Shown here in pieces: positions 4,342-25,124 of a DNA stretch of 47,681 bases. This DNA comes from Patescibacteria group bacterium. Its GTDB lineage: Bacteria > Patescibacteriota > UBA1384 > 2-12-FULL-50-11. Below the pieces are notes generated by a model. The model was given only the letters and a program-made list of their open reading frames with translations, ran no database searches and was not told the DNA's origin. The translations under genes and the position numbers were made by a program. Positions within the stretch are counted from its first letter, which is position 1; each line of letters begins with the position of its first letter. Where the stretch lies: positions 1 through 47,681 of the forward strand of contig JALHMV010000004.1 of the NCBI GenBank assembly GCA_022843855.1. Direction: 5' to 3'.

Positions 4342-4680
4342 ATGAGCAAAACACACAACGAAAAGCGCGCCGCCGCCAAGTCGAGCATCCGAATTAAGCT
4401 CAAAGCTTACGATTACCGGGTCATCGACCGCAGCGCCAAAAAGATCATCGAGACGGCTGAAAGAACCGGCGCGATTGTCGCCGGTCCGATCCCGCTGCCG
4501 ACGGAAAAAAATCTTGTCACCGTCAACCGATCGACCTTCGTCCACAAGGACGCACGCGAACAGTTCGAGATCCGCACCCACAAGCGCATCATCGACGTCT
4601 TGGACCCAAATCCAAAGACGCTTGATGCCCTAATGAACCTGGACCTTCCAGCAGGTGTAGACATCGAAATTAAAACGTAA
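4342..4680 (+). CDS. rpsJ: 30S ribosomal protein S10
   Basis: 112 aa. [39 protein letters not shown] is typical S10. Confidence 0.97.
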
Positions 4681-4749
4681 ACGTTTTACTTCTCGTTGCG
4701 AGGCAACTCGCAGTCAAAACCTAAGAGCTCAAAACAAGGTTTGCAAAAA

Positions 4750-4775
4750 GGCCGCTCACCAGAGCGGGCTTTTTG
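4750..4775 (+). terminator. Rho-independent terminator-like hairpin after rpsJ
   Basis: ccgctc-acca-gagcgg stem-loop followed by cttttt. It sits where rplC would normally follow rpsJ. Confidence 0.55.
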
Positions 4776-4824
4776 TTACCCGAATCTTTCCCGAACAGCT
4801 CGTCTGTAGTAAAATACCGTTAAC

Positions 4825-6315
4825 ATGGCAGCGGAAGCTAATCTTGAACAAAAACTTTGGGAGGCTGCTGATACATTGCGCGGAAATATTTCTTCATCTG
4901 AATACAAAGAGGTCGTTTTAGGCCTCATTTTTCTTAAATACATTTCCGATGCGTTCGAGAAGAAATATAATGAGCTGAAGCAGAGCCCGGTATCTGAGCC
5001 GGAAGATCGCGACGAATACACGATGGAAAATATCTACTGGGTGCCCAAACAGGCGCGCTGGTCCTTTATCCGTGATTACGCTAAACAGCCAGCAATCGGA
5101 ACCATTGTTGATAACGCCATGGAGGAGATCGAGAAAGATAATCCCGATCTTAAAGGGGTACTTTTCAAAAATTACGCACGTGAAAGTTTGGACAAACGCC
5201 GTCTCGGGGAGTTGATTGATATTATCTCCAGCATCGATATGTCGGGTCCGGACAAAGGAGATGTGCTGGGCCGCGTTTACGAATACTTTCTTGGTAAATT
5301 TGCCCATGCCGAAGGGCAACGCGGTGGTGAATTCTTTACGCCAAAATCAGTCGTGAAGCTGCTTGTCGAAATGGTCCAGCCGTTCAACGGCCGGGTGTAT
5401 GACCCGTGCTGTGGTAGTGGCGGCATGTTTATACAAAGTGAAAAATTTGTTCTCGACCATCAGGGCAGGATCGACGATATTCATGTCTTTGGCCAAGAGC
5501 TAAATACAACGACAATGCGGCTCGCCAAAATGAATCTGGCCATGCACCATATCGACGCCAAACTCGAGAACGGCGATACGCTCCATAATGATAAACACAA
5601 AGATTTAAAGGCAGATTTCATCCTTGCCAATCCACCGTTTAATGTCAGCGATTGGGGGGAAGAGCATTTGCGTAATGATCTCAGATGGAAGTACGGTATC
5701 CCACCGAAAGGTAACGCTAACTTTGCCTGGGTTCAGCATTTCATTCATCACTTAGCGCCGCGTGGTGTTGCTGGTTTTGTCTTGGCCAACGGTTCTATGG
5801 CCTCGCAAACATCCGGTGAAGGTGAAATTCGCAAGAATATTGTCGAAGCTGACTTAGTTGATTGTATTGTCAGCTTGCCGGATAAGTTATTCTTTAACGC
5901 GGCTATTCCTGCATGTCTGTGGTTCATTGCTCGCAATCGCGAAAACCGCAAAGGCAAGACACTGTTCGTCGACGCGCGCAATATGGGCACGATGATCAAT
6001 CGTCGGAACCGTGAACTGACTGATGCTGACATTCAGAAAATCTCCTATGCATACCACAGCTGGAAAGGTAGTAACGGTGGCGATTACAAGGATGTTCCTG
6101 GCTTTTGCAAGGTTGCCACAGTCAAAGAGATTGCCGAGCAAGACTATATCCTCACTCCTGGCCGCTACGTCGGCAGCGAAGAAATTGAAGAAGACGACGA
6201 GGCGTTCGAAAACAAAATAAAGAGGCTTACAGTAGAACTTTACAGTCAATTTGAGGAGAGCCGCAAGCTCGAATCAGAAATTAATGATAATTTGCGAAAG
6301 ATTAACTATGAGTAA
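4825..6315 (+). CDS. hsdM: Type I restriction-modification system, DNA methyltransferase subunit M
   Basis: 496 aa. HsdM N-terminal domain (LEQKLWEAADTLRGNISSSEYKEVVLGLIFLKYISD), AdoMet motif I (VYDPCCGSGGMF) and N6-adenine motif IV (NPPF). Confidence 0.93.
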   Translation: MAAEANLEQKLWEAADTLRGNISSSEYKEVVLGLIFLKYISDAFEKKYNELKQSPVSEPEDRDEYTMENIYWVPKQARWSFIRDYAKQPAIGTIVDNAMEEIEKDNPDLKGVLFKNYARESLDKRRLGELIDIISSIDMSGPDKGDVLGRVYEYFLGKFAHAEGQRGGEFFTPKSVVKLLVEMVQPFNGRVYDPCCGSGGMFIQSEKFVLDHQGRIDDIHVFGQELNTTTMRLAKMNLAMHHIDAKLENGDTLHNDKHKDLKADFILANPPFNVSDWGEEHLRNDLRWKYGIPPKGNANFAWVQHFIHHLAPRGVAGFVLANGSMASQTSGEGEIRKNIVEADLVDCIVSLPDKLFFNAAIPACLWFIARNRENRKGKTLFVDARNMGTMINRRNRELTDADIQKISYAYHSWKGSNGGDYKDVPGFCKVATVKEIAEQDYILTPGRYVGSEEIEEDDEAFENKIKRLTVELYSQFEESRKLESEINDNLRKINYE

Positions 6316-6838
6316 AAAGCGATTTACGACATACGCGTTTATAGACAGCCAGAACCTAAATCTGGGAACAAAAAAGGATATCTATAAGAATGGCAAGCGA
6401 ATATACAAAGGTTGGCAGTTGGATTTTAAGAAATTTCGACGCTATCTTTCAGATAAATTTAGGGTCGAGAAGGCTTTTCTCTTCATTGGATATATTAAGC
6501 AATACAGAAGCCTTTACCGGAGCCTTCGATCATACGGCTACGAGCTAGTCTTTAAGCCAACCGTCACAGATTCGGACGGTAAGCCAAAGGGTAATGTTGA
6601 CGCTGAGTTGGTACTGCACGCAGCGGCGATCGAGTACGGCAATTTCGATCAGGCGGTGATTGTTGCAGGTGACGGAGATTATAGGTGTTTATGTGAATTC
6701 TTGGTAACTAACAATAAGTTGCGAGCACTTGTTATTCCAAACTCCCTTTCCGAATCGGTATTACTGAAGGATTTTCAGAGATTCAAATTCTTTATTCAGT
6801 ACGAAAAAGATAAGTTGATTATGGAAACTCAGGGTTAA
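6308..6838 (+). CDS. NYN/LabA-like (PIN-fold) predicted ribonuclease embedded in the hsd operon
   Basis: 176 aa from ATG 6308, which overlaps the hsdM stop by 8 nt. Acidic motifs typical of NYN domains: AFIDSQN, GNVDAELV, VIVAGDGDY. Family call from motif memory, not a search. Confidence 0.72.
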   Translation: MSKKRFTTYAFIDSQNLNLGTKKDIYKNGKRIYKGWQLDFKKFRRYLSDKFRVEKAFLFIGYIKQYRSLYRSLRSYGYELVFKPTVTDSDGKPKGNVDAELVLHAAAIEYGNFDQAVIVAGDGDYRCLCEFLVTNNKLRALVIPNSLSESVLLKDFQRFKFFIQYEKDKLIMETQG

Positions 6839-6946: not shown

Positions 6947-8104
6947 ATGACTAAAACTGTCTTGCTCGGAAATGTTGCAGAAATAAATGCAAATCAGGTA
7001 GGAAAAGGGTATCCATATGAAAAAATAAAATATATTGATGTGGCTTCAGTAAGTAGCGGTAAGGTCGAGAAGATAGATTTAGATTTAGCTAACGCTCCAA
7101 GCAGAGCAAGACGCATTGTACGCGACAATGATATTTTGATTTCTACGGTGCGGCCGAATTTGAAGCACTTCGCGTACATACCAGAAGCCGAGGAAAACTT
7201 GGTTGCCTCGACTGGCTTCGCCACAATTTCTGGCAGCCAAAATGTTGATCCAAAGTACCTCTACTACTATATGACCAGAGACGATATAACAAATTACCTT
7301 ACTTCAGTGGCCGAAGGCCAAGCTACTACATTTCCAGCCTTCCGACCTGAAATTTTACAGAATCTAAAAATTACCCTGCCTGAGCTTGAACAGCAAAAGA
7401 AGATTGGCAACTTTCTTTATTCTCTGGATAAAAAAATCGAACTCAACCAGCGGATGAATGAGACACTGGAAAAAATCGGCCAAACACTTTTTAAGCACTA
7501 CTTCATCGACAACCCCGACCGAAATAATTGGGGAAAACGGTCTTTGAACAGCTTCGGAGAGATAATATGTGGAAAGACACCGCCGAAAAATCGCGCCGAA
7601 TATTTTGGTGGAGTAATTCCCTTCATAAAAATTCCTGACATGCATGGGCAGGTTTTTATTACCGAAACGCAAGATAACCTGACAGAACCTGGTCGAGACT
7701 CTCAAAGAAATAAAACACTGCCCGCCAACACGATATGCGTAAGTTGTATTGCAACTGTCGGGCTAGTTTCGCTTACTTCACAGCCGTCGCAAACAAATCA
7801 GCAAATAAACTCAGTAACACCGACTGAAAAGGAGTACACCTATTATCTATACTTCATGCTCAAAAGCATTAAATCTCAATTGATTGACATGGCCAGCGGA
7901 GGTTCGGCAACGCCTAACTTGAATACTTCATCATTTTCTAAGATTTCTATCACCACTCCTGACAATAAAATTCTTCGTAAATTCGACCAGACTGTAAGAA
8001 TAATTTTCGAGAGGATTCTTAATAACCAAAATCAAAACAAACAGCTAGCCGAGCTTCGCGACTCACTTTTGCCGCGGTTAATTTCTGGGAAAATTCATGC
8101 TTAA
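6947..8104 (+). CDS. hsdS: Type I restriction-modification system, specificity subunit S
   Basis: 385 aa with two target-recognition halves separated by the conserved helical spacer (LPELEQQKKIGNFLYSLDKKIELNQRMNETLEKIGQTLFKHYF). C-terminal repeat of the same type (QLAELRDSLLPRLISGKI). Confidence 0.88.
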   Translation: MTKTVLLGNVAEINANQVGKGYPYEKIKYIDVASVSSGKVEKIDLDLANAPSRARRIVRDNDILISTVRPNLKHFAYIPEAEENLVASTGFATISGSQNVDPKYLYYYMTRDDITNYLTSVAEGQATTFPAFRPEILQNLKITLPELEQQKKIGNFLYSLDKKIELNQRMNETLEKIGQTLFKHYFIDNPDRNNWGKRSLNSFGEIICGKTPPKNRAEYFGGVIPFIKIPDMHGQVFITETQDNLTEPGRDSQRNKTLPANTICVSCIATVGLVSLTSQPSQTNQQINSVTPTEKEYTYYLYFMLKSIKSQLIDMASGGSATPNLNTSSFSKISITTPDNKILRKFDQTVRIIFERILNNQNQNKQLAELRDSLLPRLISGKIHA

Positions 8105-9470
8105 GACGGTAAAGATTTCGCAATATAAAGGTTTCTACGGTACTCAGACGATAGAATTTGCAGTACCAAATAATTCAAGTTTTGGTAGTGGATTAACACT
8201 TGTTGTGGGACCGAATAATACGGGCAAGACCACGGTGATAGAATCATTACTCATTACAGAATCTAAGAAATTCAAAGAAAGTGAGCGACATGGTAAAAAT
8301 GTGCCTAAAATTGTCATAGGAAACACGCAAGGTGGTGCGACGACCTACACCAATAATCGTGGCGGGTCATTAATAAGCTTTTCTGGGGCGCATCATGGGA
8401 TAAATTTTGAACTCATCCCTTCAAGGCGATACTGGCAGTATAAGTTTGGAGGACAACATAATTTTCAACAGTTGGTTAGCCAATCCATTGCAGGAGAGAC
8501 CAGAAATTCGAATGTCTTCGATTTGGGCCCGGTATTAAAAACCATACTTTCCGATAGTCGGATTTTGGAAAGGTTTAACTCACTAATGAAGAGGGTGATC
8601 CCGCACTTTACAAGCTGGACAATTGATACGGGCGATGATGGTAGCGACTACGTAAAATACAAAACAGCCAGCACCTACCATCAATCGAATTTGTTGGGTG
8701 ATGGCATCATCTCTCTGTTTAGGATAGTTGCCCACTTAATCCATGACCAGTCGACTACTTTTATTATTGACGAGCCAGAACTTTCGCTCCACCCCGCAGC
8801 ACAGAAAAGGCTCGCTGCGGTTTTGTCTGAACTCTCTAAAGATAGACAGATAATAATCTGTACTCACTCTCCTTATTTTATTAACTGGCATGATTTTGCT
8901 AATGGAGCAAAAGTGATACGGCTGAACAAGGACGCAGAGACCCCTTGTCGCGTTTACTCGCTGGACAACTCAAAAGACTACTCTCGCTTTATTTCAGGAA
9001 CGATAAATGAATATCAGAAACCTCAATTGCTAGACTTAGCAGCAAAGGAAATTCTATTTAGCGACAGAATATTTTTTACCGAGGGGCAGGAGGATGTTGG
9101 TTTAATTAAAAGGTGGATGGCAGATAACGATATAGCTCAACCATTCGAAATATTTGGCTATGGCGTGGGCGGAGAAAAAAATATGAAGCTCTTCTTGGAA
9201 ATGGCGAAAGATCTTGGAATTGCAAAAGTAGCGGCATTATATGACTCAAATTCAACAAATTATAGCTCCGATCAGAGTAGTTATCCCGACTTCTTATTAA
9301 AAAAGCTTTCGACCGAAGACATTCGGGACAAAGTAAATAGGTGCATACGAAGTTGCCCATACGGGAAAGATAGAAACGGCACTTTTCTTTCAAATGGGAG
9401 AATCAAAACAACGGAAAAATCTAATTTCCAAGCTTTAATGAATGAAATAGTAACGCACTTATCGACTTAA
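8097..9470 (+). CDS. ABC-type ATPase fused to a Toprim/DUF4435-like C-terminal domain (OLD-family-like), embedded between hsdS and hsdR
   Basis: 457 aa. Walker [10 protein letters not shown] (aa 38-46), signature-like LLGDGIISL, Walker [13 protein letters not shown] (aa 222-233), H-loop ICTHSP. C-terminal [16 protein letters not shown] (Toprim-like Glu, aa 329) and AALYDSNS (degenerate DxD). Overlaps the hsdS stop by 8 nt and ends 1 nt before the hsdR ATG. Confidence 0.72.
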
Positions 9471-9471
9471 A

Positions 9472-12400
9472 ATGACTGAAGAAAAAATCGAAAAAGAGGC
9501 ATTGAAAATTTTAGAACGGCTTGGCTGGCAGATTTTGAGCGGGCCGGAAATCGGACCGGAAGGGTCGAGTGAGCGAAAGTACGACGAAGTAATTTTGACA
9601 CGGCGTCTTAGCGAAGCGATTGCGCAGTTAAACCCACGACTTCCAGCATCCACGATCGACGAAGTCGTCAAAAAAGTTAGTCGTCATGATCATCCGGAAA
9701 TGCTGCTGGACAATCACCAATTTCACCAGCAATTAACCGATGGTGTGAGTGTTGAATATAGGGCATCAAATGCCGAAGTTCGGACTGAGCAGGCGAGGGT
9801 TTTTGATTTTGAGAATCCTGAAAACAATGAATTCGTAGCAGTTAATCAGTTCACGGTTATTAATGGCGATTATCACCGTCGACCGGACATTGTTCTGTTT
9901 GTAAGCGGTTTACCATTGGGAATCATTGAAATTAAAGACCCGACTGATGAAAGAGCAACATTAGAAAGTGCATATAACCAACTGCAGACATACGAAGCGG
10001 AAATTCAGCCGTTATTTCGATTCAACGCACTGGAAATAATTACCGACGGCATTGATGCGGAGGTTGGAACAATCAGTGCAACCTATGAACGCTTTAATGC
10101 TTGGAAAAGCATTGATGGCAAAAAAGATCACTCAGGCGTACCTATGCTGAAAGTATTGCTGCGTGGTGTTTGTGACAAAGCGCGATTTTTAGAAATAGTT
10201 CGTAGCTTTATTGTTTTTGAAAAAGATAAAAAACACGGATTTATTAAAAAGCTGGCTGGCTATCACCAATACTGGGCAGTGCAAAAAGCGCTTGACTCTA
10301 CCGTGAAATCAATTCGACCGGGCAGTGATCATCGCGTGGGAGTTATTTGGCATACGCAAGGATCCGGTAAGTCGCTGTCCATGGTTTTTTATGCAGGCAA
10401 GTTGGTCGCTAATCCAGAACTCAGAAATCCAACGGTAATTGTGGTGACAGATCGAAACGATTTAGATAACCAGTTATTTGATACATTCTCGAACTGTCCT
10501 GAGTTGTTGCGTCAAATGCCGGTACAGGCAGAAAGTCGTGACCATTTACAGGAAATACTCAAAGTTCAGTCGGGCGGAATTATTTTCACAACCAATGCAA
10601 AATTCTTTCCAGAAAACGGCAAAGAATTTCCGCTATTAAGTGATCGAGAAAACATTATTGTGATTGCTGACGAAGCCCATCGCAGTCAGTACAACTTTAT
10701 TGACGGCTTCGCCAAACACATTCGCGATGCCTTGCCCAATGCTAGCTTTATTGGTTTTACGGGTACGCCAATTGAGGCCGATGATCGTTCAACACCAGCA
10801 GTGTTTGGTGACTACTTAGATGTTTATGACATCGAGCAGGCCGTTAAGGACGGGGCGACTGTTCCAATTTATTACGAAAGTCGTCTTGTTGAGCTGGATA
10901 TCAACAAAGATATGCGAGCCCGTATAGATAATGAAGTTGCCGAAGTAATCGGTGAGGAAGAGTTAGATCGTCAAGAAGAACTGAAGGCAAAATGGGCGCA
11001 AGTTGAGGCGGTGGTTGGCAACTCAAAACGAATTGAACGAATTGCTAGCGATATAGTTGAGCACTTTGATAATCGCCTTAGTGCAATCGACGGTAAGGGC
11101 ATGATTGTGACGATGAGTCGACGGATAGCAGTTGATTTATATAGCGCCATTGTCTCCCTGAAACCGGAGTGGGTAGGGGAAAGCGACAAGGAGGGTTTCC
11201 TAAAAGTGATAATGACTGGCTCAGCAACCGATCCGGTTGATTGGCAACAGCATATTCGTTCAAAAGAACGGCGCAGAGAGTTGGCGGATCATTTCAAGGA
11301 GCCAAGCTCACCGTTTAAGCTGGTGATCGTGTGCGATATGTGGTTGACAGGTTTTGATGCGCCAAGTTTACATACTATGTATCTAGATAAGCCGCTAAAA
11401 GGCCATAACTTAATGCAAGCTATTGCGCGAATTAACCGTGTGTATACGGATAAGCCCGGCGGTGTAGTTGTTGACTATCTGGGCGTCGCCGCAGCTTTGC
11501 GTGAAGCATTGCAGGACTACACGGTAAGTGGTGGCAAAGGCCGACCAACGCTCGATCAGCGCGAAGCTGTGGCGGTGATGATGGAAAAAATCGAGCAACT
11601 TCGCGATATGTTTCACGATTTCCCATATCGAAAGTACTTTACGGCTGATACTAAACGGCAGTTGCAGGTCTTGTTGGATGCTCAGGAATACGTCCTCTTG
11701 CAAGAAGAAGGGGAGAAGCGCTTGAAGCAGTATGTTCTAGAGCTTTCGAAGGCATTTGCATTAGCCGTTCCAAATGCGCAGGCACTGGCGACTCGCGAAG
11801 AGGTGGCATTCTTCCAGGCGGTGAGAGCGAGGCTTTCTAAGATTGTAGAAAAGGGGAAGAGCGATCAGGACTTTGGGGCGGCAATCAAACAGATCGTTGA
11901 TAAAGCCATCGCCCCGGCTGGTGTGGTGGATATCTTCGAAGCCGCGGGAATTGATAAACCAGATATTTCTATACTGTCTGACGAATTCCTGGCTGAGATT
12001 AGAGGTATGGAGCGCAAAAATTTAGCGGTTGAGGCATTGCGTAAGCTGCTGGACGGAGAGATCAAGGCAAAATTCTCCAAAAATGCAGTAAAGCTTGGTT
12101 CGTTTGCCGAGATGTTGGAGAAGGCCTTGTTGCGTTATAAAAACAATGCGATTGAAGCCGCGCAAGTCATTGAAGAATTGATAGAAATCGCCAACACTAT
12201 TCGATCTTCGGAAGAAGAAGGTGAAAAACTTGGTCTGTCGCCTGATGAGATTGCATTTTACGATGCATTGGCACAGAACGACAGTGCTCGTGCGGTGATG
12301 GGTGATGACAAATTGCGTGACTTGGCACGATTGTTGGTGAAAAGGGTTCGAGAGAATATTACTGTTGATTGGTCAGTACGAGAAGCAGCTCGCGCTCGTC

Positions 12401-12528
12401 TTAAAGTTATGGTCAAAAGACTACTACGAGAATACGGTTATCCGCCAGATCAAGAAAAAATAGCAACTGAGCTTGTGCTTGTGCAGGCTAGTTTGTTTGG
12501 CGACGAATGGAGTAGTCGTGACCGCTAA
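9472..12528 (+). CDS. hsdR: Type I restriction enzyme, endonuclease/translocase subunit R
   Basis: 1018 aa. N-terminal PD-(D/E)xK nuclease ([21 protein letters not shown]). SF2 motor motifs HTQGSGKS (I), [10 protein letters not shown] (II, DEAH) and FTGTP (III). C-terminal helical domain of the kind seen in HsdR ([10 protein letters not shown]...[10 protein letters not shown]). Confidence 0.93.
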
Positions 12529-12784
12529 ACAATTTCAAAATTTACTTAAGAAAAAGCATCAAGCAATAATAGGGGCGCAGTTTTGTTTTTTGATTGCGTT
12601 TGCGGTAGTGATCGGTAATCAGCACAACGCTTTAACAGCGCGGGATAGAAAAGCGCAACAAGTGCAGCAGAGTCTCCATGATATTAGTCAGTGGCATCGA
12701 GCTGAGTATGGGGCGCGCTACGAAGCGGTCGCTCACTCGCTTCTTTTGTTGGATGCGTACGAACAGGGTGGTGTGGAAAAATGA
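12518..12784 (+). CDS. Small single-pass membrane protein, paralog 1 (shorter copy)
   Basis: About 88 aa from GTG 12518; TTG 12497 is an alternative start. The start lies inside the last codons of hsd[33 protein letters not shown]...[15 protein letters not shown] aligns with the 13208 ORF. Start is uncertain. Confidence 0.5.
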
Positions 12785-12797
12785 CAAGAAGTATCTG

Positions 12798-13211
12798 ATG
12801 TCTAAACCGTTTCGCTCTGATAATGCACAAATCAGAAAGACTACAGAAGAGATCCATGGTCACCTTCATCTTGTTCTGAATGACATTGCCCATACTTGCC
12901 CAGACGGTGGCCTCCAGGAGTGTATAGACGGTCAGTTGATCGAATATATTCAACGCCGGAAGGGCTGGCACCCGATTGGAGAAAACGGTTTTTCCTACAA
13001 AAATGGGATCAAAGTTGTTGTTGATTCTTATCGATTTTCAAACGCTTTCGAAACGGTATTGAATATCGGGAAAGAGCTGCTGCGCGCTGAACTTGAGGGC
13101 TTGATTAAAGAATCGGCCAACAAAGGTGATGAAATACGGCGTGCGCTAAAAGAATTCGAGAGTAAAGATTGGACCGCCGCATTTGTTCGGAGGATTGTAA
13201 GTGAAAAATGA
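12798..13211 (+). CDS. Hypothetical soluble protein (137 aa)
   Basis: ATG 12798 lies 13 nt after the paralog-1 stop, and the stop overlaps the next ATG (ATGA at 13208). No recognisable motifs. The C-terminal half is predicted helical. Confidence 0.5.
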   Translation: MSKPFRSDNAQIRKTTEEIHGHLHLVLNDIAHTCPDGGLQECIDGQLIEYIQRRKGWHPIGENGFSYKNGIKVVVDSYRFSNAFETVLNIGKELLRAELEGLIKESANKGDEIRRALKEFESKDWTAAFVRRIVSEK

Positions 13212-13609
13212 TCAAACGCCTAACCGCTCGACAACTCCGGGTACTTGTCAAACAAAAGCACCGCGCCATTATCGGCGCTCAACTGGGGTTACTCCTTATA
13301 TTTGCTATTTTTATCTCGATGCAATACCGCTCGTTGGAACAACTACAGGGCAAGGTTGCTGACTATCAACAGAGTCTCGGACAGATCAGCACTATGCATC
13401 GAGCGCAATGGCGGGCCAGTACCGATGCGACTTTTCATGCGCTTGGGATGCCGGACGCCTATCTCGAAGGCGTCGAAAAGGTCGATGAGGTCTACGAGGC
13501 GGTGATGGCTGCATCTGAAGAAGCCGTCCGGCAGAAAGATCTTATTATTGAAGAGCTAAAAAAATACGGCATCGTGCCGCCGCCTGAGGAACCGACACCG
13601 GCGACCTAA
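13208..13609 (+). CDS. Small single-pass membrane protein, paralog 2 (longer copy, 133 aa)
   Basis: TARQLRVLVKQKHRAIIGAQLGLLLIFAIFIS...QQSLGQISTMHRAQW...AYLEGVEKV aligns with 12518-12784. It has an extra ~45-aa C-terminal tail ending in a Pro-rich stretch. Confidence 0.6.
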   Translation: MIKRLTARQLRVLVKQKHRAIIGAQLGLLLIFAIFISMQYRSLEQLQGKVADYQQSLGQISTMHRAQWRASTDATFHALGMPDAYLEGVEKVDEVYEAVMAASEEAVRQKDLIIEELKKYGIVPPPEEPTPAT

Positions 13610-13653: not shown

Positions 13654-14490
13654 ATGAACCAACTCATTACGAACATTCAATGGAAAAAGGTCGGGATCGG
13701 CGCTTTTTGGGCAGTGACAATTTTAGGCTACTTCTCGCTCGTCGCAGTTGTTATGGTGTATTTTTCACCAATCCTGGACGAGCAACTAACGAATCCAGTT
13801 ACTGGTGAAGCATGTCGAGGTGATGCCACGGTAGTCAACATCCCCATCAGCGGCTCACTGTATACCTATCATTTCGAAGAAGGCGACACCGCCTCGTTGG
13901 ATATTACACAGTTGATCCGTCGGGCAAACGATTCGCCAAATATTAGCGCCATTGTCCTTGAGATTGACTCTCCCGGAGGCGATCCAACCGCTGGCGAAGA
14001 AATCGCGGCGGCGGTTGCTGCATCTGAGAAACCGGTGTATGCCCTTGCGCGGGGTTACGCCACATCAGCTGCTTACTGGGCTGGTCTGACCTCGAAAGCG
14101 TTCTATGCGCATTCAACTTCCTTAGTGGGAAGTATTGGTATAACCGCGTCGTACGTGGATGCTGCCGAAAAGAATAAACGGGATGGCTTAACGTACAACC
14201 AATTGTCGACGGGGAAGTTTAAGGATTTATTTGATCCCAACAAGCCGCTCACTAAAGATGAGCGAACTCATATTGAGACGGAGTTAAACAAGTTTAAGGA
14301 ACTATTTGTTGACCAAGTCGCAACATTGCGCAAATTGCCGCGAGAAGAAGTGGTCGCTTTAGCGGACGGCTCCGCGTTGTTGGGTGGAGACGCTAAGACC
14401 AAGAAGTTGATCGATGAAGTCGGAACGATGACGGACGTTAAGAAGCGAATTGAGGCAGACACCGGTACGCCAGCCCTTCTTTGCTGGTAA
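13654..14490 (+). CDS. sppA: Signal peptide peptidase SppA-like serine protease (peptidase family S49), membrane anchored
   Basis: 278 aa with an N-terminal TM (VGIGAFWAVTILGYFSLVAVVMVYF). S49 motifs: LEIDSPGGDPTAGEEIAAAV, ARGYATSAAYWAGL (nucleophile Ser region), SLVGSIGI. Confidence 0.75.
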   Translation: MNQLITNIQWKKVGIGAFWAVTILGYFSLVAVVMVYFSPILDEQLTNPVTGEACRGDATVVNIPISGSLYTYHFEEGDTASLDITQLIRRANDSPNISAIVLEIDSPGGDPTAGEEIAAAVAASEKPVYALARGYATSAAYWAGLTSKAFYAHSTSLVGSIGITASYVDAAEKNKRDGLTYNQLSTGKFKDLFDPNKPLTKDERTHIETELNKFKELFVDQVATLRKLPREEVVALADGSALLGGDAKTKKLIDEVGTMTDVKKRIEADTGTPALLCW

Positions 14491-17536: not shown

Positions 17537-18595
17537 TTACATTTTCCTAGTCGTGACCTTCTCCCAAGGGAATGTTTTGCTCGAGAAGTGGCCGTTAATC
17601 GCTGTTTGGCGGTAGATTGGCTGACGTAGGTCTAGGAATTTGATAATCCCTGCTGGTGAGAGGTCGAAATTCTTAACCACCCAATCTCGAGCGGGATAGT
17701 CGGTATCGGTCCAAGCGTCCACCATCACGGGATCGTTATGGCCAATGGCGTAGGCGCACGAGACGAGACATTCGTTGCACCACCCTTGTGAAACAATATT
17801 TTTTGCCAAATAGCGGGCCATGTACGCTGCTGAGCGATCAACTTTGGTTGGGTCCTTTCCACTAAAACAACCGCCACCCTGCGGAATGAGGCCGCCGTAG
17901 GTGTCGACCATGATCTTGCGACCAGTCAGTCCGGTATCTGCTTCAAACCCTCCTTGTAAGAAAATTCCGGTTGGGTTGATGTGGCAATCCTCGAATCGCA
18001 GGTTGGCAACAACCGGTTGTATGACGTGCTCGAATATTTGCTGGCGTAGTTCGTCGGTAGTGATTGTTTCTTCGTGTTGAGTAGAGACGACAACGGTCCA
18101 AACCGAATTGTCGACGGTGGTGACTTGGGCTTTGCCGTCGGGGCGAAGCCAGCTAAATTTTGGATTATTTTTGCGCAATTCCGTCAGCCGATCAGTTAAC
18201 TTGTGAGCCAGAACCACTGGTAGCGGTAAAAGCTGCGGTGTCTCTTTGGTGGCGTAGCCATACATAATTCCTTGGTCGCCTGCGCCGCCCGTGTCGACGC
18301 CCAGAGCGATGTCTGAAGATTGAGTAACGATCTTAACGGTAATATCTAGCGCGTCAGCGTAGCCTATCGATCGATAGACTTGCTTGGCAACATTGGCAGC
18401 GTCAACGGTTGCCTTCGAAGTTACCTCGCCAACAATAAACAAGACACCGTGACCCCCTACGGCTTCGACCGCAACGCGGCTATTTGGGTCGTCTGTTAGA
18501 TATGCATCAAGAATTGCATCGGAAATTTGGTCGCAAATCTTGTCTGGGTGTCCTTCGGTCACTGACTCAGCCGTTCTCCACTGGCTTATAATCAT
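17537..18595 (-). CDS. metK: S-adenosylmethionine synthetase
   Basis: 352 aa with ESVTEGHPDKICDQISD, GAGDQGIMYGYA and GGGCFSGKDPTKVDRSAAY motifs. SD aaggagg lies 5 nt upstream. Confidence 0.95.
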   Translation of the reverse strand: MIISQWRTAESVTEGHPDKICDQISDAILDAYLTDDPNSRVAVEAVGGHGVLFIVGEVTSKATVDAANVAKQVYRSIGYADALDITVKIVTQSSDIALGVDTGGAGDQGIMYGYATKETPQLLPLPVVLAHKLTDRLTELRKNNPKFSWLRPDGKAQVTTVDNSVWTVVVSTQHEETITTDELRQQIFEHVIQPVVANLRFEDCHINPTGIFLQGGFEADTGLTGRKIMVDTYGGLIPQGGGCFSGKDPTKVDRSAAYMARYLAKNIVSQGWCNECLVSCAYAIGHNDPVMVDAWTDTDYPARDWVVKNFDLSPAGIIKFLDLRQPIYRQTAINGHFSSKTFPWEKVTTRKM

Positions 18596-18903: not shown

Positions 18904-19683
18904 ATGGAACCTGAGAAACGACTGGCCGGCCTGCGACGATTTAACTGGGTTATGGCGGTTTTGCATGCGGCGCAAGGCATTGCCATTATTGCATTGAGTG
19001 TCGACTTTAAGTTACCGATTACGGCGAATTACCTAACGTTTGATGTCGCAACTCAGTCGTTACTGCCGGCTTCGAGCGAACTATTCAGGCTGTCCCTACC
19101 TTGGTTGGTGGCAGTATTCTTCTTCCTCTCGAGCTTTGCGCACCTGAGTATTGCGAGTTACTACAACAAGACCTACGACGACAATCTCTTGAAGGGCATT
19201 AATAAGGCTCGGTGGTGGGAGTATTCTTTCTCGGCTTCAATTATGATGATCGCAATTTCGCTGCTGGTTGGTATCTACGACTTTGGTAGCCTACTCATGA
19301 TCTTTTCGCTCGTTGCAACGATGAACTTGCTCGGTTTGGTAATGGAAGTGCAAAATCAGGGTCGCCTTGAGCGCGGCGAGAAGCCAAACTGGTTTAGCTT
19401 CAACTTGGGTTCGTTCGCTGGCCTAATTCCGTGGATCGTGGTCGGGTTAGCGTTTTACTGGAGCGCAAAATTTAGCGGCGCGACGCCGCCAACGTTCGTC
19501 TATTGGATCTATGTCTCGATCTTCGTTTTCTTCAACTGTTTCGCGTTGAACATGATTTTGCAGTACAAGAAGGTCGGAAAGTGGGCAGACTATCTCTACG
19601 GCGAGAAAGCCTACATCGTACTGAGCTTGGTCGCCAAATCGCTGCTCGCGTGGCAGGTATTTGCCGGTACACTTCGTCCGTAA
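18904..19683 (+). CDS. Heliorhodopsin (7-TM retinal protein, inverted topology family)
   Basis: 259 aa, collinear with the reference heliorhodopsin 48C12 as I recall it. FNWVMAVLHAAQ (His), SSFAHLSIASYY (His), RWWEYSFSASIMM (counterion Glu). C-terminal GEKAYIVLSLVAKSLLAWQVFAGTLRP against GERAYIVLSLVAKSALAWQIFSGTLIPA (Schiff-base Lys, here Lys245). SD aaggag upstream. Confidence 0.9.
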   Translation: MEPEKRLAGLRRFNWVMAVLHAAQGIAIIALSVDFKLPITANYLTFDVATQSLLPASSELFRLSLPWLVAVFFFLSSFAHLSIASYYNKTYDDNLLKGINKARWWEYSFSASIMMIAISLLVGIYDFGSLLMIFSLVATMNLLGLVMEVQNQGRLERGEKPNWFSFNLGSFAGLIPWIVVGLAFYWSAKFSGATPPTFVYWIYVSIFVFFNCFALNMILQYKKVGKWADYLYGEKAYIVLSLVAKSLLAWQVFAGTLRP

Positions 19684-19686
19684 CAT

Positions 19687-20247
19687 ATGAATCGCTGCAT
19701 GATCGTGCATGGGTGGGCGGGGAATCCTTCCCATGGCTGGAAACCGTGGTTGAAAGCCGAACTGGAAGCAGCCGGGTGGCAGGTCGAAGCGCCTTCGATG
19801 CCTTCACCGAATACTCCTAAACTTAATGAGTGGCTCGAGGTGCTCGCAGAAATTGTCGGTACACCAGACGAAAACACATACTTTGTTGGTCACAGCTTGG
19901 GCTGCTACACATTTCTGAAATACATCGAACGCCTGCCGGAAAATCAAAGGATCGGTGGGGGAGTGATGGTCGCTGGTTTTGCCGGCTACCTCAAGCACAA
20001 AATCCCAGTTTTAGAAAAATACTATGAAGCCGGTTTGGATTGGGACAAGATCCGTCATCACAACGGCAAATACGCGGCCATTTATTCTGACCGTGATGAT
20101 TACGTCCGGGTAGAATCGGCCTTTGAATTTGAAAAACATCTCGGTGCCACACTGATCAAAAACAACGACTGGGAACACTTCTCCGGCGACGAAGGTATCA
20201 CCCAACTCCCCGACGTCCTCTCCGCATTACTCCACATCTCAAAGTAG
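19687..20247 (+). CDS. YdeN/RBBP9-type alpha/beta serine hydrolase
   Basis: 186 aa. MIVHGWAGNPSHGWKPWL N-terminus and GHSLG nucleophile elbow, with the size typical of the Ser_hydrolase family. Starts 3 nt after the heliorhodopsin stop. Confidence 0.72.
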   Translation: MNRCMIVHGWAGNPSHGWKPWLKAELEAAGWQVEAPSMPSPNTPKLNEWLEVLAEIVGTPDENTYFVGHSLGCYTFLKYIERLPENQRIGGGVMVAGFAGYLKHKIPVLEKYYEAGLDWDKIRHHNGKYAAIYSDRDDYVRVESAFEFEKHLGATLIKNNDWEHFSGDEGITQLPDVLSALLHISK

Positions 20248-24539: not shown

Positions 24540-25124
24540 ATGACAAAAGCAATCTTGGGATGGAAACTTGGTATGACACAAGTGTGGGACGACAAAGGTC
24601 GTCTGGTTCCTGCTACTGTTATTTTCGCGCCGAGCAATACTGTTCTCACCAAGACTGAAGACCGCGTTCTCGTCGGCATCGCTACTCGCGGCAAGACCAA
24701 CAAAGCCCAGGCTCATCTCGCTAAGAAAATCGATTCGAAGCGTGGCATCGCCCTCAAAGAACTAACCGGCGTTTCTCCGGATATGGAAACGCTTTCGGTT
24801 AGCCAGTTTGCTGTTGGCGATAAGCTCAGTATCAGCGGCGTAACCAAAGGTAAAGGCTTTGCCGGTACGATCAAGCGTCATAATTTCCACCGTGGACCGA
24901 TGACTCACGGCTCAGACAATATTCGCCAGCCGGGTTCGATCGGTGCGCAGCGTCCGCAGCGCGTGCCAAAAGGCCAAAAAATGGCTGGTCACATGGGCGC
25001 AGTCAACCTGACCGTTCGTGGTAACAAGGTTTTGGCCGTCAACGCTGAAGAGAATCTCCTGATCGTCTCCGGCGCAGTCCCTGGTCCCGCCAAAGGACGT
25101 ATTTTAGTACGGAGCAACTCATGA
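24540..25124 (+). CDS. rplC: 50S ribosomal protein L3
   Basis: 194 aa with ILGWKLGMTQVWD and KGKGFAGTIKRHNFHRGPMTHGS. Confidence 0.97.
   Translation: MTKAILGWKLGMTQVWDDKGRLVPATVIFAPSNTVLTKTEDRVLVGIATRGKTNKAQAHLAKKIDSKRGIALKELTGVSPDMETLSVSQFAVGDKLSISGVTKGKGFAGTIKRHNFHRGPMTHGSDNIRQPGSIGAQRPQRVPKGQKMAGHMGAVNLTVRGNKVLAVNAEENLLIVSGAVPGPAKGRILVRSNS

Follow-up and report, generated by a model that had tools for sequence, protein, structure and literature searches.

Class 1 proteins of the OLD family, among them P2 Old, the Thermus scotoductus enzyme (Ts OLD, PDB 6p74) and the Vibrio cholerae enzyme (Vc OLD), are single chains in which an N-terminal ABC ATPase with an insert is followed by a C-terminal Toprim domain of the OLD type, and at family level they have no conserved partner gene such as a UvrD-like helicase or a retron reverse transcriptase. 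The class has been defined and filtered at a length of 500-600 amino acids (aa) (PMC12392090). Ts OLD acts on DNA, and a four-helix dimerisation domain forms part of its ATPase (PMC7049728). P2 Old and AriB are reported to be Toprim tRNA nucleases (PMC12445682; PMC12409363). Embedded genes are common in type I restriction-modification (R-M), BREX and DISARM systems, with PrrC in EcoprrI as the classical case, and HEC-04, an ATPase-Toprim fusion embedded in Hma, is anti-phage, losing defence when its Walker A motif or its metal site is mutated (bioRxiv 10.1101/2024.01.29.577857). For BREX, embedded modules of OLD-ABC and Toprim genes have been interpreted as suicidal effectors that serve as a back-up (PMC12839542). 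We have studied an OLD-family gene of a Patescibacteria group bacterium, which lies between hsdS and hsdR of a type I R-M operon on a 47,681-nucleotide (nt) stretch of DNA (contig JALHMV010000004.1), referred to here as the window. An OLD-type ATPase-Toprim protein inside a methylation-based defence operon is already a known kind of arrangement. Three things are new. The family is compact, falls outside the length set for Class 1, has a relaxed DxD and a DIRDK motif, and is covered by no specific model in PADLOC or NCBIfam; it recurs in type I operons at the position that PrrC occupies; and in one operon lineage there is clean evidence that cassettes are exchanged gene for gene at two slots.

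We propose that the protein is probably a self-contained compact OLD enzyme, carried as swappable hsdS-hsdR cargo of a mobile type I R-M operon and acting as a second-line anti-phage effector. The proposal builds on the domain identity, family membership, conservation pattern, cassette behaviour and operon coupling that we observe. The ABC-type ATPase would control the metal-dependent nuclease of the C-terminal Toprim domain. In a horizontally mobile operon, the gene would belong to a set of cassettes that replace one another between hsdS and hsdR; it would be co-transcribed and translationally coupled with its neighbours, and the protein would travel and be expressed with the R-M system as a back-up. 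Some sign of infection would, we infer, be detected by the ATPase, which would then allow the nuclease to cut DNA or tRNA and stop phage escaping restriction. By analogy the nuclease could attack either DNA, the substrate of Ts OLD and Vc OLD, or tRNA, that of P2 Old and AriB.

The gene, its domains and its motifs are as follows, all on the forward strand.

8097-9470, + strand: OLD-family gene, 457 aa, ATG start (list of open reading frames and translation)
8097-8996, + strand: ABC ATPase domain, aa 1-300 (motif conservation and AlphaFold2 model)
8208-8234, + strand: Walker A GPNNTGKTT, aa 38-46, with K44 (translation)
8691-8717, + strand: signature-like LLGDGIISL, aa 199-207 (translation)
8760-8780, + strand: Walker B FIIDEPE, aa 222-228, with D225 and E226 (translation)
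within the ATPase domain, + strand: D-loop H232 (family conservation)
8862-8873, + strand: H-loop THSP, aa 256-259, with H257 (translation)
9054-9467, + strand: predicted Toprim nuclease domain, aa 320-457 (profile alignment to 6p74, conservation and models)
9081-9095, + strand: EGQED with E329 and D333, within a motif at aa 326-336 (translation)
9243-9251, + strand: DSN, aa 383-385, with D383, and N385 replacing the second Asp of DxD (translation)
9318-9332, + strand: DIRDK, comprising D408, I, R410, D411 and K412; T406 also noted (family conservation)

The open reading frame (ORF) of 457 aa and every motif given in an initial annotation of the window (GPNNTGKTT, LLGDGIISL, FIIDEPE, THSP, the stretch at aa 326-336 and DSN) were confirmed in the ORF list and translation. 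The same annotation had taken the protein to be a single-chain OLD-like fusion of ABC ATPase and Toprim, and this is borne out by matches in Pfam, PADLOC and the PDB and by Foldseek. On the full protein, Pfam models AAA_15 and AAA_21 matched at ~1e-20. PF20469 (OLD-like_TOPRIM) just exceeded its cut-off of 23.2 with the whole chain (23.5 bits) and scored higher with the C-terminal 157 aa alone (25.7 bits, E = 1.7e-5). These matches, and that to PDB 6p74 below, far exceed what chance would give. Among PADLOC models Old ranked first (1.2e-22, 78 bits), ahead of the ATPase cores of AriA, NsnB, HEC-01A, GajA and PtuA. Neither PADLOC nor NCBIfam has a specific model for the protein; all matches were partial or low-scoring, those to PtuA, Eco8 and MAD3 in the two collections lying far below their cut-offs, and assignment to any named system was therefore rejected.

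The nearest solved structure is that of Ts OLD (PDB 6p74), matched at 5e-12, and at 1.1e-21 with a family profile. The profile alignment has no break between the signature and Walker B motifs and the Toprim domain, and passes through E377, D381 and D431 of Ts OLD. An AlphaFold2 model derived from 63 relatives had a predicted local distance difference test score (pLDDT) of 90.1 and a predicted template modelling score (pTM) of 0.90. When the full model was compared with the PDB by Foldseek, 6p74 was the top match (E = 3.8e-15, 494 aligned columns, 16% identity to Ts OLD in the structural alignment), followed by SMC/Rad50 heads, which correspond to the ATPase only, and then by the full-length OLD proteins of retron Eco8 and GajA. 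The C-terminal domain was also modelled alone (aa 296-457, pLDDT 85). In both models its strands and helices follow the order beta-alpha-beta-alpha-beta-alpha-beta, strand 1 being followed by E329 and strand 3 by D383. The ATPase insert (aa 71-167) is modelled as a short beta-sheet and three helices (123-132, 143-152 and 154-167; pLDDT 62-87) and occupies the place of the four-helix dimerisation domain of Ts OLD, than which it is shorter; by analogy with other OLD proteins the window protein is probably dimeric. From profiles and predicted structure, then, the protein is a single-chain OLD-family ABC-ATPase/Toprim fusion. The resemblance of its C-terminus to DUF4435 and AriB that was suggested initially did not survive: no DUF4435, AriB or RloB model matched the domain even at E<=10, and the motif is that of an OLD-type Toprim. 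OLD-like_TOPRIM was the sole Pfam match of the C-terminal domain, there was no HEPN-type match, and no HEC model in PADLOC matched it.

Conservation was followed in alignments of 63 and 119 family members, down to ~30% identity. In the ATPase K44, D225, E226, H232 and H257 are invariant or nearly so, and S206 is conserved; in the Toprim domain E329, D333, D383, D408, R410 and K412 are likewise invariant or nearly so. In Ts OLD, metal A is held by E377, D431 and D433 and metal B by D381, S478 and E480, with an arginine acting like Bp K562 (PMC7049728). The profile alignment equates E329 with E377, D333 with D381, D383 with D431 and N385 with D433. On this alignment E329 and D383 would correspond to ligands of metal A, while D333 and D408 are probably those of metal B; D408, judged by its place after strand 4, would take over from E480, and R410 or K412 would supply the catalytic basic group. 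The DSN found initially in place of DxD is real, but it is not peculiar to this gene, being a trait of the whole family: residue 385 is a mixture of D, N and G across the 63 and 119 members, and the second Asp is missing in all nine members sandwiched between hsdS and hsdR. This Asp would appear to be dispensable in the compact OLD family. Because E329, D333, D383, D408, R410 and K412 are so strictly conserved, we predict a modified yet likely working nuclease site, and not a dead domain.

A variable loop follows DIRDK (window 9333-9380, aa 413-428). In the subclade of the window it contains CxxxC (C416/C420), other members have up to 4-5 cysteines, and in many the loop is missing. The cysteines may form a small metal-binding knuckle beside the active site.

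The protein belongs to a large family of similar size. A word-indexed search returned 985 matches, of which the best 120 have 37-78% identity and are mostly 450-500 aa long. An exhaustive profile search of 1.84 billion cluster representatives gave 436 representatives of 50%-identity clusters at E<=1e-30; among the best 150 of these nearly all are 450-500 aa, matched over their full length. In a collection with a single genome for each species, at least 476 matching stretches were confirmed as relatives, spread over many bacterial phyla and some archaeal ones. The sources name the proteins 'predicted ATP-dependent endonuclease of OLD family', 'AAA family ATPase' or 'ATP-binding protein'. Being shorter than the 500-600 aa filter, the family falls outside current OLD trees, and surveys using that length range miss a widespread family of ~455 aa (436 clusters) in bacteria and archaea. 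It is reasonable, on sequence grounds, to regard it as a discrete compact OLD family and a distinct OLD subclass, as had been offered initially as one of two possibilities; the other, a restriction subunit, is taken up below. The family appears to be basically a self-contained, Class-1-like single-gene module. One characterised member would reveal the minimal OLD architecture and how much of the two-metal site is needed.

Some members carry extra domains: P0017 (631 aa) is a NUDIX fusion, and P0221 and P0246 (667-685 aa) have an N-terminal extension of ~200 aa.

How does the window protein compare with the described systems? It shares with Class 1 OLD the single chain, the domain order, an insert in the ATPase and the lack of a conserved partner gene across the family; Class 1 also provides its best sequence and structure match, with the equivalents of E377, D381 and D431 kept. 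It differs in being ~70-130 aa shorter, at 457 aa, than Ts OLD (525-528 aa) and P2 Old, which we take to be 586 aa, and so lies below the Class 1 length criterion. That it is shorter than P2 Old and GajA had been remarked at the outset, and PDB chain lengths agree (528 for Ts OLD, 575-598 for GajA). Relative to Ts OLD, ~50 aa are lost before the signature motif and ~20-25 aa in the C-terminal part of the Toprim domain. Further differences are that the compact family lacks a conserved second Asp of DxD, has DIRDK where Ts OLD has S478, E480 and the arginine, and was not found in phages.

HEC-04 is also a compact single-chain ATPase-Toprim protein inside a multi-gene, restriction-like defence operon, with a similar spacing of ~55 residues between the Toprim E and D; it differs in its host system, Hma as opposed to type I R-M, and in having a complete DxD (D375/D377). 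Its model was not among the 25 best PADLOC matches (all E<=7.6e-13), assuming that PADLOC-DB 2.0.0 contains it. PARIS (Class 4) likewise pairs an OLD-type ABC ATPase with a Toprim effector, but AriA and AriB are two genes, whereas the window protein is fused; AriA matches the ATPase core only, and the C-terminal domain has no AriB or DUF4435 match. GajA of Gabija (Class 2) has the same pair of domains and a matching ATPase core, its models matching weakly (4e-17 for the full protein, 6e-4 for the C-terminal part), but its chain is longer (above), its Toprim domain contains a helical insert and it has a UvrD-like partner, GajB. No UvrD/PcrA/Rep-like helicase adjoins the OLD gene of the window, whose neighbours are hsdS and hsdR. 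RloA/RloB of Campylobacter, linked to hsd genes, is to our understanding a two-gene pair of an ATPase and an RloB-like protein (PF13707); the window protein differs in being a single gene without an RloB Pfam match at E<=10. The OLD-ABC/Toprim modules of BREX and BREX-related operons (PMC12839542) are alike in concept, being flanked by core genes of a methylation-based defence system, with BREX as host instead of type I R-M.

The operon consists of five genes on one strand, in the order hsdM, NYN, hsdS, OLD gene and hsdR; its members other than the OLD gene, with a hairpin upstream, are as follows.

4752-4767, both strands: terminator-like hairpin between rpsJ (4342-4680) and hsdM (consensus scan only)
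4825-6315, + strand: hsdM, 496 aa, opening the operon (Pfam N6_Mtase 3e-112, HsdM_N; PADLOC MTase_I 1e-207)
6308-6838, + strand: NYN-domain gene, a predicted RNase, in the hsdM-hsdS slot (Pfam NYN 1.6e-12)
6947-8104, + strand: hsdS, 385 aa (Pfam Methylase_S in two stretches, 6e-39; PADLOC Specificity_I 9e-85)
9472-12528, + strand: hsdR, 1018 aa (TIGR00348 4e-186; PADLOC REase_I E = 0; Pfam HSDR_N, SWI2_SNF2, T1R_D3-like and T1RH-like_C)

The flanking hsdS and hsdR, recognised initially, are thus substantiated by Pfam, PADLOC and TIGR00348. The OLD gene is tightly joined to both. Its start overlaps the hsdS stop by 8 nt (ATGCTTAA, 8097-8104), and a spacer of 1 nt separates its stop codon (9468-9470) from the hsdR ATG at 9472. 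Comparable overlaps of starts and stops occur in loci L081, L082, L086, L092, L169 and L012 (loci are cited by our numbers). The NYN gene, for which PADLOC gave no match, probably starts at the ATG at 6308, sharing 8 nt with the end of hsdM (ATGAGTAA); the start in the ORF list is a TTG at 6251. HEC-09, an embedded NYN protein, has been described without defence being shown (bioRxiv 10.1101/2024.01.29.577857).

A position within the operon, translational coupling to it and an apparent co-divergence with the hsd genes (below) could suggest that the protein is an accessory or regulatory subunit of the restriction enzyme, modulating, for example, translocation or cleavage by HsdR, or restriction alleviation. 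The sister operons largely refute this. Relatives of the window HsdR were found at 92-93% and ~82% identity, and the best OLD relative in the same database has 78%. In L172 and L173, with HsdR at 93%, the operon lies at the same site (fusA-tuf-rpsJ-hsdM), but an unrelated gene, of 279 aa and 273 aa respectively, stands between hsdS and hsdR. In L174 and L175, with HsdR at 82%, the place is taken by a DUF4062 gene and by three genes (205, 29 and 344 aa), respectively. All four of these operons have cargo whose ends overlap the stop of hsdS and the start of hsdR. Moreover HsdM, HsdS and HsdR of the window are each matched by their own family models across most of their length, and the majority of relatives with readable surroundings have no hsd gene nearby (below). 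We consider a subunit role highly improbable.

The borders of the exchange are sharp. Compared with L172 by blastn, the window is homologous over rpsJ-hsdM (4366-6221), the 3' half of hsdS (7432-8091) and hsdR (9469-12506, 87.5%); the match ends at 8091 and restarts at 9469, the borders of the OLD ORF. With L081, in contrast to L172, homology is continuous through the OLD gene and hsdR. Since the sister slots hold unrelated genes and homology breaks at the borders of the ORF, the OLD gene is a precise exchangeable cassette in the cargo slot of this operon lineage, and not a restriction subunit. The hsdM-hsdS position is equally variable, being occupied by NYN (in the window), a HEPN-like Hypoth_Ymh protein, Fic, DUF3800 or unknown proteins. 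Near-identical hsd operons at the same site with a precise swap of the hsdS-hsdR gene amount to an unusually clean natural experiment.

Most cargo genes of both slots overlap or abut the start and stop codons of their neighbours. The variable cargo lies at 5315-8008 in L172, 5205-8004 in L173, 5389-8004 in L174, 2948-8001 in L175, 3096-3913 in L081, 1637-3273 in L082, and 7727-8827 and 11416-11880 in L012. Several of its proteins (273-344 aa) have no Pfam or PADLOC match, and their genes may be new defence genes. HsdR of the window (9472-12528) is 93% identical to that of L172 (DNA 87.5%), and EF-G (835-2922 in the window) only 82% (DNA 75%). This gap suggests a recent horizontal exchange or recombination of hsdR among related Berkelbacteria-like genomes at a conserved site. 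A homologue of the NYN gene (9309-9785) lies directly upstream of the OLD-family member in L023, and in L027 another is 7 kb away.

The neighbourhoods of relatives were sampled at 160 loci from genomes and metagenomes, with 10 more obtained by exact look-up of family members, and hsd genes were sought by iterative search of the ORFs of each locus with the window Hsd proteins. Flanks were readable for 62 of the 119 full-length members. There was no hsd gene within 10 kb in 42 of these contexts; in the other 20 hsd genes were present, nine in the order hsdS-OLD-hsdR and 11 in other arrangements. Our rough estimate of linkage by chance is ~1-2%, and judged against this a linkage of one third is far above expectation. 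The hsdS-OLD-hsdR cases fall into two clades, one with the window, L081, L082/83, L086 and L169 and the other with L012, L092 and L093. Clustering of 516 flanking ORFs into 474 clusters revealed no conserved partner gene across the family apart from hsd. The sole recurrent neighbours other than hsd were small ORFs (71-121 aa) within four genes of the OLD homologue, at 7 of 79 genome loci (L003, L007, L025, L037, L039 and others).

In the prr locus, prrC likewise lies between hsdS and hsdR, which raises the question of whether the OLD protein acts in the manner of PrrC. On this explanation it would dock on HsdR, HsdS or HsdM of the type I enzyme and be kept latent, until a phage anti-restriction protein, an inhibitor of the Ocr or Stp type, disabled the enzyme and so released the Toprim nuclease to cut tRNA or DNA, leading to abortive infection. 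PrrC in EcoprrI (hsdMSR) shares with the window protein an N-terminal ABC-type ATPase fused to a nuclease, as well as a model of a latent back-up effector, and the ABC ATPases of PrrC and PARIS respond to Stp and Ocr (10.1101/2024.01.29.577857). There is also a precedent for Toprim tRNA nucleases in P2 Old and AriB. Several features of the locus fit: the tight coupling of start and stop to hsdS and hsdR, the hsd linkage of one third of the readable contexts, and an OLD identity that tracks those of HsdR and HsdM across seven sandwiched loci (78/81/83, 60/53/61, 38/36/41, 86/84 and 65/71/73). The nearest solved relative of the window HsdR is that of EcoR124I/II (PDB match at 2e-32), and we take EcoR124I and EcoprrI to be both of type IC.

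However, most family members have no hsd partner, so that latency cannot in general depend on Hsd proteins; PrrC, by contrast, is found almost exclusively inside type I R-M systems (10.1101/2024.01.29.577857). The unrelated cargo beside HsdR at 82-93% identity fits co-transfer or co-expression equally well, and co-divergence is also expected from joint inheritance of whole operons. Parallel divergence of OLD and HsdR as the sign of an obligate partnership was down-weighted after relatives with 93%-identical HsdR showed different cargo. The nuclease differs too: that of PrrC is HEPN according to the literature (PMC3710099), and it is this description that sets PrrC apart from the Toprim protein studied here. 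Given a HEPN PrrC and RloA/RloB as a presumed pair, the OLD protein is no member of a named hsd-linked family, a possibility raised initially. Guarding of the restriction complex is in our opinion unlikely, if a serious contender. The same unlikelihood attaches to its extension, in which the type I complex would keep the compact OLD protein inactive, making it a functional analogue of PrrC with a Toprim nuclease, until a phage anti-restriction protein blocked the complex and the nuclease cut tRNA or DNA. The two built-in slots of the operon lineage (hsdM-hsdS and hsdS-hsdR) would swap guard or effector cassettes gene for gene (OLD, NYN, HEPN, Fic, DUF4062, DUF3800 and unknowns), read out via translational coupling.

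Several observations weigh against our proposal of a self-contained back-up nuclease. With the C-terminal domain modelled alone, Foldseek against the PDB and BFVD gave no match at E<=1e-3. The best in the PDB were PTS EIIA-Man (0.04, generic Rossmann-like) and RecR (0.17), and the best, non-significant, in BFVD a phage DNA primase (0.014) and a DnaG/twinkle TOPRIM protein (0.097). Thus the Toprim fold, for which a structure prediction had been recommended initially, is upheld by the match of the full model to 6p74 but not by the domain alone, and it rests on sequence profiles, the full-length structural match and the order of secondary structure. In addition, T406, the equivalent of S478, varies across the family, and together with the incomplete DxD this could mean that catalysis is weak or altered. 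For Escherichia coli YbjD, a Class 1 OLD protein, the Toprim domain is reported to be dispensable for its phenotypes (PMC13261556). The extreme form of this argument is that the protein is an ATPase-only effector or sensor with a catalytically dead Toprim domain merely binding nucleic acid; this would agree with the loss of the second Asp from the window protein (N385) and all sandwiched members, and with the G or N common at this position in the family. Yet the near-invariance of E329, D333, D383, D408, R410 and K412 over 119 members is hard to explain without catalysis or metal binding, and Ts OLD mutated in metal A or metal B alone still nicks (PMC7049728). A dead domain therefore seems to us quite unlikely.

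Further points against the back-up nuclease concern distribution. The family is absent from 50,697 phage records and was present on one of 72,556 plasmids, so that the vehicles on which defence genes commonly move do not obviously account for its spread. Housekeeping genes surround several of the standalone members: scpA/scpB, ftsK and metabolic genes adjoin them, and the large neighbours include carboxyltransferase, methylmalonyl-CoA mutase, FtsK and ABC1 kinase. Cran1, an archaeal OLD class, has a non-defence role as a cell-cycle factor (PMC12796447). Taken with the resemblance of the ATPase fold to SMC/Rad50 heads, these points could indicate a role in genome maintenance or the cell cycle, for instance as a repair nickase or a Cran1-like factor, with no part in defence and only an incidental location among hsd genes. 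Such a role is hard to reconcile with the patchy distribution of the family and its lack of a conserved neighbourhood, or with the third of readable contexts beside R-M genes (type I, ISP and IIG); other standalone members adjoin genes of type ISP or type IIG. The cassette behaviour speaks against it as well, as close sister genomes lack the OLD gene at the same site, and so does the low local G+C content, 41% at 6-10 kb versus 50-55% in the flanks, which suggests a foreign origin of the block. We regard housekeeping as very unlikely, and continue to favour a second-line effector carried by the R-M operon. As such it would add to the small known defence repertoire of the Patescibacteria (candidate phyla radiation), whose genomes are tiny.

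The hsd block lies directly after fusA-tuf-rpsJ, and the best named relatives of the window EF-G are from Candidatus Berkelbacteria (79-81% identity). The hairpin at 4752-4767 is a possible left boundary of the hsd transcription unit; in the consensus scan of the region for promoters and terminators the number of sites was not above shuffled expectation. No tRNA genes were found in the window. An insert of ~20 kb between rpsJ (4342-4680) and rplC (24540-25124) interrupts what is usually a continuous S10 ribosomal-protein operon. It contains, in addition to the hsd block, an S49 peptidase (13654-14490), MetK (17537-18595, minus strand), a heliorhodopsin (18904-19683, Pfam 1e-92), a serine hydrolase (19687-20247) and several further ORFs without a Pfam match; L172 has a shorter insert at the same place. 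Directly 3' of hsdR are two overlapping ORFs without a Pfam match, at 12678-13211 (177 aa) and 13208-13609 (133 aa). The 3' part of the first (12901-13211) has 81% DNA identity to L173 12320-12630, and the position downstream of hsdR is occupied in L172 and L173 by DpnI-like and PD-(D/E)XK nucleases.

Finally, in alignment A1 of the family P0093, P0096 and P0114, and also P0085 and P0086, have Trp at otherwise invariant Gly columns. This is the pattern expected if genes in which UGA encodes Gly (code 25, Gracilibacteria/Absconditabacteria) are translated with UGA as Trp; L034 is a Gracilibacteria locus.

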